A stretch of 64,000 bases of DNA from Alphaproteobacteria bacterium (GTDB taxonomy: Bacteria; Pseudomonadota; Alphaproteobacteria; UBA828), in assembly GCA_965214705.1 (NCBI GenBank), contig CBDCCI010000002.1:1-64000 (forward strand), written 5' to 3'. Made by a program: the position numbers. Shown here one piece after another: positions 24,001-30,000 of the stretch; position 1 is the first letter of the stretch, and each line of letters starts with the position of its first letter.

Positions 24001-27000
24001 GCACGGCGGAATCTGCTATTTTATGGTGACGCAGATTCGGCGGCCTGAGCCATGCCCATCACCCTCCCGATTTGCCCCCCAGAAGCGGTTCCGATCGGCA
24101 ACAGCTGCTTCGCCGTCCTGATCTCCGACGACACCTTCACCTACTTCTCCAATCTCGTTCCGTTCGACAGCCACCCCGCCGATGACCGTGCCGCCATGCT
24201 CATGCGGATTGGCCGGCTCGCGGTGGTCAGCGACATCGCGCAACGGGATCTGGTCGACGCGTTCGGTGTCTCGCGCGCGACCGTGCTGCGCGCGCGGCGG
24301 CGCTACCTGGCCGAGGGTGAAGCGGCGTTTCTGAAACCCCGGCGCGGTCGCGGGCCGTCGGTGTTCACACCGGAACTGGCCGAGAAGGCGACAGCGTTGC
24401 TGGAAGCGGGCCTGAGCGGCTCTGCGGTGGCCCGGGTTCTGGGCGTGTCGGTGGCGTCGGTCAACAAGTGGCGCCGGCAGGGGCTGATCGGCAAGGCGGC
24501 GCAGGAGCCCGGGGGTTCGGCGCAGGGTCCACCGCCCGATGCGGTTGAGCGGCGCGTCGACGATGACGGTGCCGGCGCCCCCGGGTCCGAGACGGTACGA
24601 CCGGAAGCGCCGCCCCTGACGGAACCGGCGCAGAGCCGCTCACCAGGCCCCATCGACGCCGGGCCGCAGACCGATCGCACCGCACGCGACCGGCGCGACC
24701 GGCAGGCGCCGATGGGGCGCGCGACCTGCGATGTTTCGGGCCGGGTGCTGGCCAGCTGCGGGCAGGCGGGGCCGGTCGATCCGCAGTTCGGCAGCGCCGC
24801 CCGCGGGGTGCGCTCAGGTGGCGTTCTCACCGCCCTGCCGGCTCTGCTCAAGGAAGGCCTGCTGGCCGCGACCGAGGTCCTGCCACCGCTGCCGAAGGGC
24901 TATTACGGCCTGAACACGATCCTGCTCTTCCTGGCCTTCATGAGCTTGGCGCGGGTGCGCAATCCCGAGAGCCTGCGCTACCGGCCGCCGGGCGAATGGG
25001 GCGCCATTCTCGGCCTCGACCGCTGCCCCGAGGTCAAGACGCTGCGGCGCAAGATCGCGCTGATCGCCAACGACGAGGCCGGCGTGCGGGCCTGGCAGCT
25101 CGCCCTTGCCAGGCGCTGGCAGGCCGACGAGCCGGAGCTCTGGGCGACGCTGGCCGTCGACGGGCACGTCAAGGTCTACGCCGGCCGCAAGGGACGCCTG
25201 CCGAAACACTTCGTCTCGCGCCAGAAGCTGTGCCTGCCGGCCAGCGCCAGCTACTGGATCAATGCCCTGGGCGGCAAACCCCTGCTCTGTCTGCACAAGA
25301 CGCTGGATCCGAAGATGGTCGCCGCCATCGAAGCCGACGTGGTGGCGGCGCTGCAGGAGCTCGGGATCGTCGATGCTCAGGCGCCGGACCTGACCGCACA
25401 GGCGCCCGGCCACCCCGCGCTCACCCTGGTCTTCGACCGCGAGGGCTGGAGCCCGGAGCTGTTCCGCCGGCTGGCGAGGCGCGGCATCGCTTGCCTGACC
25501 TGGCACAAGAACTTCAGCGGCGAGGATTGGCCGGTCGAGGACTTCAGCGCGACGACCGTTCCCATTCACGGACCGGCGACGAGCGGCACCGCCGCCTTGC
25601 GGCTGGCCGAAAAGCCGGTGACGTTGCCGAACGGCTTCAGGGTGCGCCAGATCCGCCGCCTGCTGGACAACGGCCGCCAGATCCCCTTCATCGTCACCGA
25701 TCCGCACAAACCGATGGGCGAGGCCGCAGGCGCCATGGTCTCGCGCTGGTCGCAGGAAAACTTCTTCAAGTACATGCGCGACGAGTTCAACCTCGACGCC
25801 CTGCCGACCCACCAACTCGAGCCGCTCGCTCCCGACACCATGGTCGTCAACCCGCTCCGGCGGGCCTACGACAAGGCAATCCGCAGCGCCGAACGCCGGC
25901 TCGCCCGCCTGCGCAACCGGATCGCCGGCGCGGCCAGGAAAAAGAGGCCGACGGCGCAGCTCAGGAGCGAGGTCAGGGACCTCGAGGGCGCCCTCGAGAT
26001 CGCCAAGGCCAGCCGCAGGAACGTGCCGAAGCACTGTCGGGCCGGCGACCTCGACGAAGACCGACAGCTCGATGCCCTGCCCTCACGCGACCGTCTCCTC
26101 CTCGACGTCATCCGCATGATCGCCTACCGCGCCGAAACCCGCATGATGCTCCCCGTCATGCAGGGACAAGGCAAGAAGCCTCATCCCCGGAAACTGCTTC
26201 AGGCTCTCTTGGCCGCCGATGCCGACATCCTGCCGGACCCCGCCAACGGCGTTCTCCGGGTCCATATTCTCGGCCTCGCAAATGACGCCTGCGACCGCCA
26301 GATCGATGCCCTCCTGAGCGAGCTCAACGCCACCGAAACCGTCTTCCCCGGGACCGAACTGCGCATGGTCTACGAGGTCGCCGCAGCCCCGGAATCCACG
26401 CAAACCGCATCACCCCAAATCAGCAGAGGTCAGGAAGTCTGGTGCGCCAGGCAAACTGGTGGAATGTCGCCGGGTGGAAGTCCCGGCAGAAAGAGAGGTG
26501 AACCGACCACTTTCTCCGCGACCCATGCGCCGGTCGTCGCGAGGCGGCAGGCGAAGCGTTGGGAAGCGGCAGGCACGGGCCGGGCTATTGAGCCACGAAA
26601 CCTGATTCAACCGGGGTGCCGAGGCTGTCAGATTAGCCGAAGGCAACACCCTGTGAGCCGTTTTGGTGAGGCGAGCAGGGGCTCTGCGGGGTCTAAGAAC
26701 CATGGCACGTGCCGAAGCAGTCCACCGGGACCTGGGAGGTCTTCGAACTGCCCCGCGGTCGTGCGGGGCCGCTAAGGAAAGGAGCTATACCGCAACCCAA
26801 TGATGTACGGTTCGAAGAAATCAGATTCGCCCATAGTGTGTGCTGGGCAGCGCCCAGATCAGGTGGGTTCAAGTCCCACTGGCGCTCGGGTAAGGGGCGC
26901 CATATCCAAAAGTGGGGGTAATTCGTCACTGGCCGGAGTGAGCCGATAAGCGAAACTCTAAACGGGCACGAAGCCGGAAACGGCGGAGACAGCCAAGGGA

Positions 27001-30000
27001 GGAGCTAAGTTGGTCCACTGTCGAAAGACAACCGGAAGGCAGGGTGTCCACCGCGAGGTGGAATCTGAAGGGCTTGCGGAGAAGTACCGGGCCGTAATCG
27101 AGGGGGCCACCCCATGATGAATCGGTCGGCCAAAGACGGGGCAAGGTCGAGCCGGCACTATGGCGGCGAAGGCGTTCTTACCCACCCGTCGCACCAAGGT
27201 GTTTGCGAGCGGCACGGTACGGAAGATCTGGACGTGACCCCAGGAGGGCTCGCCGCGTTCCCGGGTGGCACCGGGATAACGGACCCTATAAGCCGAAAGG
27301 CGAAATGGGAAAGGATGCGCGGCGAGCAATCGGACAACCGAATAGTACCTGAAGCCCGGCGAAAGCCGGGTGACCGCGCGAGCGGCGGCCGTGTGGGCCG
27401 GGGAAGTCGGTTGGCAGAGGTGGTCGGCGAGAGACAGCGATGAGTGAGTAAGGACCATGACGCGGACAAGTTCCTTGAGCGAAAGACCCGGACATCATGG
27501 CCCGAGGAGACTCATCGACTGGATCAACCCGGCGGGTGACAGGAAGGTCCACTCACTGGTGGACAAGGTGTACAAGCGGAAGAACCTTGAGGTGGCCTGG
27601 GAAAAGGTGAAGCGCAACCGGGGTGCCGGTGGCGTGGACGGAGAGGATTTAGCGGCGTTCGAGGCATCGCTGGATGCAAATCTCGATCGCCTGCACCGGG
27701 AGTTGCGGGACGGTGAGTATCACCCGCAGCCGGTTCTCCAATGCCTGATCCCCAAGGCGGGCCAGCCGGGGAAGTTCCGCCCGCTCGGCATCCCGACAAT
27801 CTACGACCGGGTGTGCCAGCAGGCGCTGCTGAACCGGCTGGAACCGATCTTCGAGCCGGTGTTCGACGATGCCAACTACGGGTACCGGCAAGGAAGGTCT
27901 GCCCATGGAGCGTTACGCAAGATATGGAGGGAACTGGACGAGGGCAACGAGTGGGTTCTCGATGCGGATTTGAAAGACTTTTTCGGGTCCGTGGACCACG
28001 AAAAGCTCCTCGAACTCGTCAACCAGCGAGTCTCGGATGGCCGGGTATTAGGTCTGCTCAGGCAGATGCTCACGGCCGGGGTGGTGGCCGACGGTAAGAG
28101 GCTGCCGACCGAACAGGGCACTCCGCAGGGCGGCATCGTTTCACCGCTGCTCAGCAATATCTTGCTGACCCCGTTCGATTGGGAAATGCGTCGTCGCGGC
28201 TATCGACTAACGCGATACGCCGATGATTGGCTGATCACGTGCCGCACACGCGGGGAAGCCCGCGCAGCACTGGAGACGGCCAGGCGGATTCTGGCAAAGC
28301 TGGGTGTGTCCCTCAACGCCGGGAAGACCCGCATTGTCCATGTCAGGCACGGGTTTGAGTTCCTCGGCTACAAGATCAAGCAGGGCGAGCGGCCTCTCCG
28401 GCTGTCGTCCTCCAAGATCAAGAGCGGGGTTCGCGGGGGAGCGCGCTACGCGGTTCCGCGTGAGAAATCCATCCGGCACTTCAAGGACCAGATTCGCCAG
28501 CGTACCCGGCGCAAGGCTCCTGTCAGCACGCAGGAGCTGATTGACGAGATCAACCCGATCATTCGGGGATGGGGCCAATACTATTGCAAGGCCCACGTCC
28601 GCGGGCTCTTCCACCAGCTTGACGGCTGGATCGTGCGGCGGCTCTGGTCGCATCGTCGCAAGCGCTGGCGCAACGCTGGCTGGAAACAGTTGCCGGAGCG
28701 CAAGCTGATCGACGAATACGGGCTTGTTCGCCTGATCTCACTGGTTCCGTCCTTGAACCTTCGTTGAGACACCTTTGTGAAAGCGGCTTACGGGAAAACC
28801 GTACGGGCCGTTTGAGCGGCGGACGGAGGCTAGCCTCGCGGGGCGCCTCCTCCGACCCGACAGCAATGAAGCCGGCGAACAACGGCCCCTCGGGGCCGGC
28901 GGAGCCGGGGGAGCGAAGGGGCGGACCCAAGGGCAATCCGAAAGGCCAAAGCTCGCGCCGCGCGCAGAAGCGGGGAAGCGAGTCACAGGCGGCCGACCGG
29001 ATACGACAGGCTGCAAAGAGGAACCCGGATGAGTGTCTCGTGGCGCTCCTCCACCATGTGACGGTTGACTGCCTGCGCGACGCGTACCATTCGCTGAGAA
29101 AGGACGCGGCAGCGGGGGTGGACGGCGTCACGTGGGAGGCATACGCCGACGGGCTGGAAGATCGCTTGGTCGACCTGCACGGGCGTGTGCACAGGGGGGC
29201 GTATCGGGCGCCGCCGTCGCGGCGGGTCTACATACCCAAAGAGGACGGGGGACAACGACCGCTCGGCATCGCCTCGCTGGAGGACAAGATACTCCAGCGG
29301 GCGGTGACGGATACGATTCTGGTGCCGATCTACGAGACGGAGTTCCTCGGCTTCAGCTACGGCTTCCGGCCGGGGCGGGGGACGCATAACGCGCTCGACG
29401 CCGTGGCGGTTGGAATGGAACGGCGGAAGGTCAACTGGGTCGTTGACGCCGACATCCGCGGGTTCTTCGACAATCTCGGGCGGGACCACCTGGTCGGGAT
29501 GCTCGAAAGGCGCATCGGAGACACGCGGGTCATGCGGCTGATCGTCAAGTGGCTGAACGCCGGCGTCATGGAAGGGACCGACTGGACGGACACCGGCAGG
29601 GGCGTTCCGCAGGGTGGGATAATCTCACCCTGCCTCGCCAACGTTTACCTGCATTACGTGCTCGACGACTGGTTCCACAACACATGGCGCAAACGGACGG
29701 CAGGAGGCGACACAATCATCGTGCGATACGCCGATGATTTTGTGTGCGGCTTCCAGCACGAGGGCGACGCGAAGCGTTTCCTCCGGGACCTCGGCGAGAG
29801 GCTGGCCCAGTACGGACTGGAACTGCATCCGGGCAAGACCCGGCTCATCGAATTCGGCCGCTACGCGAAAGCGAACCGCCGGACACGGGGGCAGGGCAAG
29901 CCGGAGACGTTCGACTTCCTTGGCATGACGCACTTCTGCGACCAGTCGAGGAAGGGACGGTTCAGGGTCGGCCGCAGGCCATCCCGGAAACGGGTCAACC

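Follow-up and report, generated by a model that had tools for sequence, protein, structure and literature searches.

A nested group II intron in an alphaproteobacterial genome, referred to here as intron A, is very probably an autonomous, endonuclease-less mobile element that homes to one loop strand of domain IVa, (G/C)C-AUAGU↓A (the arrow marks the insertion point), in other group II introns. It was located in the window, a 64,000-nt stretch comprising positions 1 to 64,000 of contig CBDCCI010000002.1, within a host intron (B1) that itself interrupts a transposase gene, so that the nesting depth at this locus is three (transposon, B1 and A). The features of this locus, and of a second nested pair in the window, are listed in Table 1.

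Table 1. Features of the two nested intron pairs, with positions counted along the window.
Feature	Position	Strand	Details and basis
Transposase gene	24052-26441	+	PF21804 Transposase_29 (Pfam E 8.8e-106); 5' exon of host intron B1
Host (outer) group II intron B1	26442-30379	+	1,914 nt without A; begins GUGCG; limits from B1 copies and uninterrupted target copies
5' strand of host domain IVa	26829-26837	+	Closing stem GCCC 26829-26832; loop AUAGU 26833-26837
IBS1 CAUAGU	26832-26837	+	Empty sites; RF01998 consensus and structure
Intron A (inner intron)	26838-28861	+	2,024 nt, 5' GUGUGC to 3' CCGAC; empty versus occupied sites
EBS1 ACUAUG	27157-27162	+	Hairpin loop on a covarying 4-bp stem; complementary to IBS1
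EBS3 candidate U	27202	+	Pairs with 3' exon base +1 (A)
A protein gene	27457-28767	+	436 aa; RT and maturase (X), YADD motif present, endonuclease domain absent
Domain V of A	28781-28813	+	13 bp, 2-nt bulge, AGC triad at start; RNA fold
Domain VI of A	28817-28859	+	RNA fold; candidate branch point: bulged A 28855, base 7 counted from the 3' end
Remaining host domain IVa	28862-28922	+	IBS3 A 28862; start codon 28866-28868; inner hairpin; loop GAAG 28915-28918; stem GGGC 28919-28922; sequence and closure test
B1 protein gene	28866-30302	+	478 aa; RT and maturase (RVT_1, GIIM); TIGR04416 340 bits
Second nested pair, outer intron type C	52648-61339	+	5' end approximate (GUGCG at 52648)
Second intron A copy	53184-56894	+	At GCCCUCGUAGU↓A of the type C host
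IS inside second A copy	54434-56108		1,675 bp; 12-bp target duplication
Type C maturase gene pieces	56921-57535 and 60338-61252	+	Split by IS66-family element
IS66-family transposase	58464-60203		PF03050
Type C domains V-VI	61239-61339	+	Part of the second nested pair

The outer intron at the first locus is complete around the inner one. An RF02005 match (26477-26701, 154 bits) lies upstream of A, in keeping with the host RNA family previously named; downstream are a TIGR04416 protein and domains V-VI, the latter matching RF00029 at 34 bits (30306-30378), below the gathering score of 40. B1 copies without A are contiguous across the site, and matches to intron-free copies of the Transposase_29 gene stop at window position 26441.

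The limits of intron A were set by comparing empty and occupied sites. Four A-free B-type copies read CCCATAGT up to the junction and AGCAATG directly after it, and B1 and B2 copies with and without A place this junction at TAGT↓A. Because these copies read straight through, the limits of 26834-28862 given in the earlier note have to be revised: the TAGT preceding A and the single A trailing it are exon, and the site lies 4 nt rather than 3 nt upstream of the host ATG. The revised element begins with GUGUG at 26838 and finishes with GAC at 28861, conforming to a GUGYG 5' end and an AY 3' end. The number of copies given earlier, 20, was recovered by a BLAST search of the element against the genome (11 uninterrupted and nine interrupted by IS elements), together with two further fragments. 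Most copies are 99.9-100% identical; the lowest identity is that of B3_c (98.9%), and each of the others differs at four positions at most (≥99.8% identical). The copies hosted by B3 introns are all broken or deleted, and much of the intron A family in this genome may be inactive.

The RT and maturase ORF formerly assigned to A is intact, and its product matches RVT_1 (PF00078, E 3e-40), GIIM (PF08388, E 2e-19) and TIGR04416 (384 bits, cut-off 300). The nearest solved relatives of this protein are IIC enzymes, and it is 30% identical to the B1 protein. Domains V and VI are seen in the fold of 28778-28861 (z-score -3.05), with none of 200 shuffled sequences folding as well. No Rfam family reaches its gathering score on the window copy, for which RF02001 gives 21.4 bits (gathering score 32) and RF00029 no match even at E≤10. 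Among relatives of A, RF02001 scores 33-34 bits on L029, L032 and L044, and RF00029 scores 40-43 bits, with 10 of 11 matches ending where the 3' junction is predicted. Judged by its sequence, A is a mobile group II intron, for which splicing and retromobility are predicted; near-identical copies at 13 or more site types suggest that this mobility is recent. Alignment of assembled RNA-library contigs to the twintron gave coverage of A-like sequence but no A-skipping joint.

Exon recognition by A is indicated by complementarity and by compensatory changes across relatives, for both the EBS1-IBS1 and the EBS3-IBS3 pairing. Starting from CAUAGU and ACUAUG (IBS1 and EBS1, respectively) in the window copy, the two elements shift together in L006, L008, L009, L018, L022, L026, L033 and L034; they read GUAAU and AUUAUG in L008 and L009, CAAAGU and ACUUUG in L018, CAUGGU and ACCAUG in L022, L033 and L034, and ACGGUGG and CCACCGU in L026. 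A single mismatch occurs in L016, L046 and L047. At 27202, 26 of 28 sequences share a T; the exceptions are L022, where C faces an exon +1 G, and L026, where A faces an exon +1 T. No other alignment column outside EBS1 shows that exon +1 pattern. A search of A for an EBS2-like complement to the conserved upstream motif found none, and no EBS2-IBS2 pairing was seen.

At the base of host domain IVa is a conserved internal loop whose 5' strand is the target, CAUAGU↓A; the target sequence is contained in the RF01998 consensus (GcCAUAGUA-hairpin-GAAGGgC). The stem that closes this loop covaries: four contiguous pairs are formed at 27 of 45 sites, compared with a permuted mean of 8.5 and maximum of 17.8, and 16 distinct stems are represented. 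Distance to the host ATG was rejected as a definition of the site, since it varies (B types, 4 nt; type E, 6 nt; type C, about 27 nt); what defines the site is the basal internal loop of domain IVa. The target is not invariant, given that the loop reads xUAGUA in only three of the seven host types found independently of A. A conserved flank, GARGUC(A/G), is situated 13-20 nt upstream of the site.

Within this genome, 16 of the 20 A copies are placed in domain IV of other group II introns and four are outside introns. Twelve share one position in B-type hosts (B1, three; B2, two; B3, five; B4, one; and one copy whose 3' flank is that of B1 while its 5' flank differs), as had been reported, while four more, and one fragment, are found in more distant host introns. 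The idea of homing into domain IV near the maturase start was sound, and applies more broadly than first claimed. The companion claim that no empty site is left was false, as 15 unoccupied homologous sites exist (two in B1, two in B2, five in ORF-less B derivatives and six in type C); the pattern that had returned zero matches was rebuilt from the wrong boundaries. Likewise, the share of B-type maturase genes carrying A changes from 10 of 13 to 12 of 16 maturase starts. Seven paired bases cannot explain the specificity: A is present at about half of the domain IVa sites versus roughly 1% of other YCRTAGTA sites, some 351 of which are unoccupied in the genome. Eleven of the empty sites, in the ORF-less B derivatives and type C copies, are pairable, which means either that pairing and domain IVa context are insufficient or that insertion is just slow.

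The earlier estimate of at least three independent insertions is upheld by the occurrence of A in at least 13 site types, including eight host types and the four sites outside introns, and by A haplotypes that cross host types. The latter are distinguished at position 570, and both are present in B3 hosts. Compared with the near-identical A copies, the host introns are 72-74% identical in DNA. Host type D is weakly supported, its RF02005 match (32.6 bits) falling below the cut-off. The second pair in the window has a type C host, in which no Rfam D1-D4 match was detected upstream. This pair had been described as further split by an IS91-bearing insertion; an insertion does lie in the host maturase gene, although the element belongs to the IS66 family (PF03050). 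Its A copy is also split, by a separate IS, and the same site is empty in six type C copies.

Relatives of A with 50-93% identical proteins occupy the same structural site in records from many phyla. An Rfam D1-D4 match on the same strand upstream of the 5' junction was found at 26 of 32 loci scanned, at a distance of about 100-400 nt in 24 of them, and the hosts so recognized represent four D1-D4 families (RF02005, RF02001/RF01998, RF01999 and RF02003). The six scanned loci without an Rfam host match are L016, L020, L022, L026, L036 and L047; L036 nevertheless has both a closing stem and a second RT gene on its downstream side. A second RT gene begins within 450 nt downstream at 26 of 44 informative loci. 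The arrangement also occurs in cultured strains, on Cupriavidus necator N-1 pBB2, a Bradyrhizobium barranii plasmid and an Alicyclobacillus plasmid. As a further exception to the intron setting, one insertion is antisense within a hydantoinase B gene. Across genomes, the A protein is 88-93% identical and the hosts are 60-69% identical to B1.

By analogy with established group II introns, the excised A lariat together with its protein would reverse-splice into the sense strand of DNA. As the A protein has no endonuclease, cDNA synthesis would probably be primed by nascent strands at replication forks, a route that the review in PMC4424553 reports for endonuclease-less introns. Conserved sequence flanking the site, for example GARGUC(A/G), is probably recognised by the protein as well. 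Where the host carries an ORF, its maturase gene starts a few nucleotides 3' of the target. Because a resident A splits host domain IVa, the folding of the host and the expression of its maturase should both require A to be spliced out first. Host function constrains the target, which is present wherever such introns are; A would thereby gain a safe site that is renewable and a means of crossing phyla.

Some of the copies could have arisen differently: after one or a few entries of A into a B-type intron, the B::A twintron would have multiplied as a unit, through retrohoming of the outer intron with unspliced A or through duplication of the carrier transposon; the copy count would then say little about homing by A. 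Composite mobility is named as a possibility by Mohr et al. (2010, PMC2882425). All five B3 copies carry A, with no empty B3 in the genome, four of them have the G570 haplotype in common, and about 940 nt of upstream transposase flank is common to two of the three B1::A copies. Such spread may have added to the B3 and B1 copies. On its own it cannot account for the pattern, and it is unlikely as the general explanation, considering the range of site types (non-intron sites among them), the presence of both empty and occupied copies in B1 and B2, the two A haplotypes among B3 hosts, and the higher cross-genome identity of the A protein than of the hosts. An invasion at the RNA level, in which A reverse-splices into the single-stranded loop of the host RNA and the composite is copied and fixed when the host retrohomes, would draw on known group II intron chemistry, as reverse splicing into RNA is. 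It would explain the exact choice of loop, the target being an unpaired internal-loop strand in the host RNA model, and it agrees with the search of A that found no EBS2-like complement. We nevertheless consider it very unlikely: the non-intron sites, one of them antisense to the hydantoinase gene, suggest that DNA is the target, copies of one host type with and without A share the same kind of exon, and conservation of the loop sequence alone accounts for the choice of target. Finally, the homologous insertion point across host types could reflect a single entry into a host ancestor, inherited since, with the copies homogenised by gene conversion. This is scarcely credible in the face of empty sites in several host types, hosts from four Rfam D1-D4 families, an EBS1 retargeted to variant loops and most A copies 99.9% identical in hosts 72-74% identical.

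Autonomous homing by A is the reading preferred here; a bolder one, which we put forward tentatively as possible rather than probable, concerns its whole clade (50-93% protein identity). The clade would be a dedicated parasite of group II introns, fixed on a domain IVa basal loop not easily altered by its hosts, which belong to at least four structural families. It would retune EBS1 to the loops encountered (AUAGUA, AUGGUA, GUAAUA and AAAGUA), cross phyla independently of its hosts and gate host maturase expression and mobility while resident. Its protein may recognise the folded single-stranded DNA of domain IVa, much as IIC introns recognise hairpins.

The closest precedents are the twintrons of Thermosynechococcus and Methanosarcina. 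Work on M. acetivorans by Dai and Zimmerly in 2003 reportedly concerns, going by its title, homing into related intron ORFs. In Thermosynechococcus elongatus, F3 introns (TeI3a-e) are nested in F1 introns (TeI4a-e) (Mohr, Ghanem & Lambowitz, 2010, PMC2882425). As with A, the inner intron is described as homing to one conserved domain IV site at the start of the protein gene, there between the first two ATGs, and identical inner copies in diverged outer introns were read by the authors as recent independent insertions, with nesting as a route of proliferation in non-essential DNA (PMC2882425). The inner introns are portrayed in that paper as ORF-less, close kin of their hosts and dependent on a host-type protein, in one genome and one intron class. 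In contrast, A encodes its own protein, only 30% identical to the B-type one, its site is the domain IVa basal loop, and its habit is that of a whole clade across phyla, with hosts from four Rfam D1-D4 families. The nested introns of M. acetivorans, compared through their description in a review, resemble A in homing repeatedly and site-specifically into other group II introns, a perpetual homing site, but are archaeal and reach up to five levels of nesting (PMC4424553).

Intron A is like class C (IIC) introns in that its protein has no endonuclease and IBS2 is absent. IIC introns pair with three or four exon bases, whereas A pairs six and its domain V is of full length. Class C was rejected for A because it pairs six bases and its target, a loop strand of another intron, is neither a terminator nor an attC hairpin; similarity of the protein to IIC enzymes does not define the class. 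Lineages with specialised targets are described among IIC introns, inserted after terminators, and IIB1 introns, at start or stop codons (PMC4424553, PMC12584367). A is similarly a whole lineage marked by a special kind of target, which in its case is another intron.

Nested introns are already known, although such a breadth of hosts appears to be undescribed. New here are the conserved domain IVa loop as the target, written into RF01998 itself, the covariation of EBS1 and EBS3, and the relatives at the same site in records from many phyla. Published survey pipelines state that they drop twintrons or miss the outer intron (PMC4028801, PMC8919778), which may be why this clade-wide habit escaped notice. 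An endonuclease-less intron with a 7-nt pairing code, a short, well-defined natural target and a protein of 436 aa that is close to thermostable IIC laboratory enzymes could interest targetron builders and RT researchers. Nested introns are one route to higher intron density and expanded non-essential DNA. If the proposed explanation is true, A would be a mobile ribozyme that has specialised on a functional RNA motif found in its own relatives. It would then be a clear example of one mobile element parasitising another, with signs of co-variation between target and guide.

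Comparison of empty and occupied sites fixed the limits of the inner intron A at those listed in the table, and the boundaries given in the earlier note were not borne out. The TAGT preceding the element and the A following it are exon bases, and the empty junction in four B-type hosts without A reads ...CCCATAGT^AGCAATG or ...GGCCATAGT^AGCGATG (the caret marks the insertion point), with the ATG of B-type hosts 4 nt downstream of the insertion point. Against the NCBIfam equivalog model of group II intron RT/maturases the encoded protein scores 384 bits, above the cut-off of 300, and domain searches of its 436 residues found no endonuclease domain. 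RNA folding predicted a typical domain V (13 pairs, a 2-nt bulge and an AGC triad) in the terminal 84 nt and a domain VI with a bulged A. No Rfam model matched the window copy at gathering score. RF00029, the model of domains V-VI, matches relatives of A at 40-43 bits and ends at the predicted 3' junction in 10 of 11, the exception (L020) extending ~34 nt beyond it; RF02001, a D1-D4 family, matches relatives at 33-34 bits. Intron A is a group II intron. Readings of it as an assembly artefact, or as a retron or other RT element, were rejected; the resemblance of the A and B proteins to solved structures is not class-defining.

Features of the window and related loci elsewhere in the genome (positions are those of the window unless a contig is named)
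Feature	Location	Size or sequence	Remarks
SNF2-family helicase gene	20943-23891	983 aa	directly upstream of the B1-carrying transposase gene
Outer intron B1	26442-30379	1,914 nt excluding A	RF02005 at 154 bits
Intron A	26838-28861	2,024 nt	starts GUGUGC, ends CCGAC; empty/occupied comparison
EBS1 of A	27157-27162	ACUAUG	hairpin loop, covarying stem
Candidate EBS3 of A	27202		A position 365
A ORF	27457-28767	436 aa	RT and maturase domains
Bulged A of domain VI	28855		predicted by RNA fold
Second strand of target loop and stem, B1	28915-28922	GAAG-GGGC	~50 nt into the host ORF
Sulfotransferase gene	31400-32266 (minus)		downstream of B1
Porin gene	32478-33485 (minus)		downstream of B1
Insertion sequence	54434-56108	1,675 bp	UPF0236-like transposase, 12-bp target duplication; 25 near-full copies
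IS66-family element	57458-60287	~2.8 kb	39 near-full copies
A copy with mixed flanks	C1:1694283-1697993		B1 3' flank
ORF-less B-type mini-introns	C1:421596-422231; C1:1859880-1861186 (tandem pair); C1:2635840; C3:1789223	~0.6-0.7 kb	five in G000, the source genome; RF02005 at 168 bits each

BLAST of the whole genome (7.92 Mb in three contigs, the window being C3:1-64000) bore out the 20 copies claimed earlier, 11 of them uninterrupted and nine interrupted, and added two fragments. Insertion sequences are abundant in the genome and break the nine interrupted copies; in three of the A copies the 1,675-bp element occupies three different positions. The outer intron in the window, B1, encodes an RT/maturase of 478 aa with 30% identity to the A protein. 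A transposase gene (PF21804) in turn carries B1 at its 3' end, so that, with A inside B1, there are three levels of nesting.

Twelve A copies occupy the homologous point of B-type hosts: three in B1, one whose 3' flank is that of B1 but whose 5' flank is unrelated, two in B2, five in B3 and one in B4. By tblastn, 12 of the 16 B-type maturase starts carry A. Four further copies were found in more distant host introns, namely B5 (RF02005 at 122 bits upstream; a second, truncated copy is present), C (the second A copy in the window, with maturase pieces and domains V-VI downstream and no Rfam D1-D4 match upstream), D (without an ORF, and weakly supported by RF02005 at 32.6 bits) and E (followed by an RT gene, with RF00029 at 64 bits). 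The remaining four copies are not in any recognisable intron; one of them is antisense within a hydantoinase B gene, and Rfam gave no match around the four sites. The unrelated 5' flank of the copy with mixed flanks is AT-richer and ends in GCCUAUAGU, and no Rfam intron model matches it; this copy looks like a recombinant of two twintrons across common A sequence.

The earlier statement that no empty site is left was refuted by the finding of 15 homologous sites without A. These comprise two in B1, two in B2, five in ORF-less B derivatives reading UCGUAGU^A, and six of type C, whose flanks are identical or almost so to those of the occupied type C. Each of the ORF-less mini-introns retains a remnant of the maturase start together with the empty site, and in three of them domains V-VI lie ~560 nt downstream of the start of the RF02005 match. 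Across the genome, 366 YCRTAGTA words are without A; A occupies about half the domain IVa sites, compared with ~1% of the other YCRTAGTA sites.

The structural setting of the target was read from RF01998, whose consensus, aligned to an unoccupied host-type intron, is ...gUCAGCAGAgGcCAUAGUA-hairpin-GAAGGgC. In the structure line of this family GcC pairs with GgC, and AUAGUA and GAAG face each other in an internal loop; the insertion point of A thus falls in the 5' strand of this loop, at the base of domain IVa. The start codon of B-type hosts falls just within the inner hairpin. The closing stem covaries, four contiguous pairs following the [GC]AA[GA] word in 27 of 45 sites with 16 distinct stems, against 8.5 on average and at most 17.8 when partners were permuted. 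At the four non-intron A sites the stem scored 0-1 pairs. With AGUA facing GAA, the target loop may resemble a loop of the sarcin-ricin type.

EBS1 of A is fully complementary to CAUAGU, the six-base IBS1 in the exon of the window copy, and pairs with CGUAGU via G-U. Among relatives in other genomes, IBS1 GUAAU is found with EBS1 AUUAUG (L008, L009), CAAAGU with ACUUUG (L018), CAUGGU with ACCAUG (L022, L033, L034) and ACGGUGG with CCACCGU (L026), while three relatives (L016, L046, L047) show one EBS1/IBS1 mismatch. Position 365 of A is U in 26 of 28 aligned sequences, C when the first base of the 3' exon is G and A when that base is U, a pattern in the alignment that fits EBS3. No EBS2 was found in A, no stretch of which is complementary to the conserved motif GAAGUCAG upstream of the site or to its variants, and exon positions -7 to -12 vary between sites used by near-identical A copies. 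At the equivalent place in its own domain IV, A carries GUGAGUA, which would mispair with its EBS1 and could thereby spare it from self-invasion.

In a genome of the same genus, A was found at 91% DNA identity, at the same point of a B-type host with 73% identity. A scan of species genomes recovered 63 loci whose proteins share 50-93% identity with the A protein, assigned by record titles to Nitrospirales, Thermodesulfobacteriota, Longimicrobiales, Candidatus Entotheonella, Alphaproteobacteria, Acidobacteriota, Planctomycetota and others. Their usual junction is ...GARGUC(A/G)..n..CAUAGU^A-nnn-AUG/GUG.... An Rfam D1-D4 match lies upstream on the same strand in 26 of the 32 loci scanned (within ~100-400 nt in 24 of these) and is absent in six; the families are RF02005, RF02001/RF01998, RF01999 and RF02003. 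A second RT gene starts no more than 450 nt downstream in 26 of the 44 loci with enough flank. The arrangement is also present in Cupriavidus necator N-1 pBB2, a Bradyrhizobium barranii plasmid and an Alicyclobacillus plasmid (protein 52% identical), and a 44%-identical Sulfobacillus relative is without it. Three A-type relatives (L043 4760-7500, L044 4778 onward, L035 5100-7039) are interrupted in the ORF or 3' part by another group II intron, with RF01999 or RF02003 matches and a second RT gene inside, so A is also able to be a host. All nine RF02005 introns sampled from other genomes regardless of A were unoccupied; the loop reads xUAGUA in three of seven types of these hosts, with the variants AUACGA, GUAUGA, GCAGUA and AUGGUA. 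The domain IVa target is common, not invariant, and some host loop variants match retargeted forms of EBS1.

All A copies but one differ at no more than four positions, the exception being B3_c, a copy in a B3 host that is 98.9% identical, and the host introns are 72-74% identical at the DNA level. A T/G variant at A position 570 crosses host types, and both forms occur within B3 hosts. A single ancient insertion was rejected as a reading of A. Extra copies within B3 and B1 may have arisen by spread of composite B::A units, since B3 without A is absent from the genome and two B1::A copies have an upstream flank in common. Chromosome-scale records that bear the labels of different phyla contain A-type proteins 88-93% identical to that of A, with host maturases only 60-69% identical to that of B1, which suggests that A has passed between phyla recently and independently of its hosts.

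Contigs from four RNA-library runs are 90-99% like the ribozyme half of A, and some continue into host-like flanks. No joint across A or B1 was present in these contigs, which speaks neither for nor against splicing; the joints listed were skips of 70-248 nt only, with short sides. We infer that A would splice, be mobile and have an effect on its host. At a loose end at window position 30377, a contig of run X16 passes from a B-like domain V-VI directly into GGACCAUAGUAGCUACGAAGCC..., an unoccupied domain IVa-like site; in some organism another intron may end right before such a site.

Nested introns have precedents in the literature. In Thermosynechococcus elongatus, F1 introns carry ORF-less F3 introns between the first two ATGs of their domain IV protein gene, the inner copies being identical and the outer introns diverged (PMC2882425). 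Repeated homing of introns into other introns is described for Methanosarcina (review PMC4424553), and the commonest neighbours of group II introns are other group II introns (PMC7306698). The accessible text, including PMC3552965, PMC7306698 and PMC8637638, contained no autonomous clade that targets this domain IVa loop in several families of introns and in different phyla; it did not extend to key subscription papers and supplements, so an earlier description is possible. The homing of A into domain IV of other introns, as the earlier note had it, is real and more general than was claimed, although several details were wrong, and the case of A is a variant of the already known homing of introns into introns.
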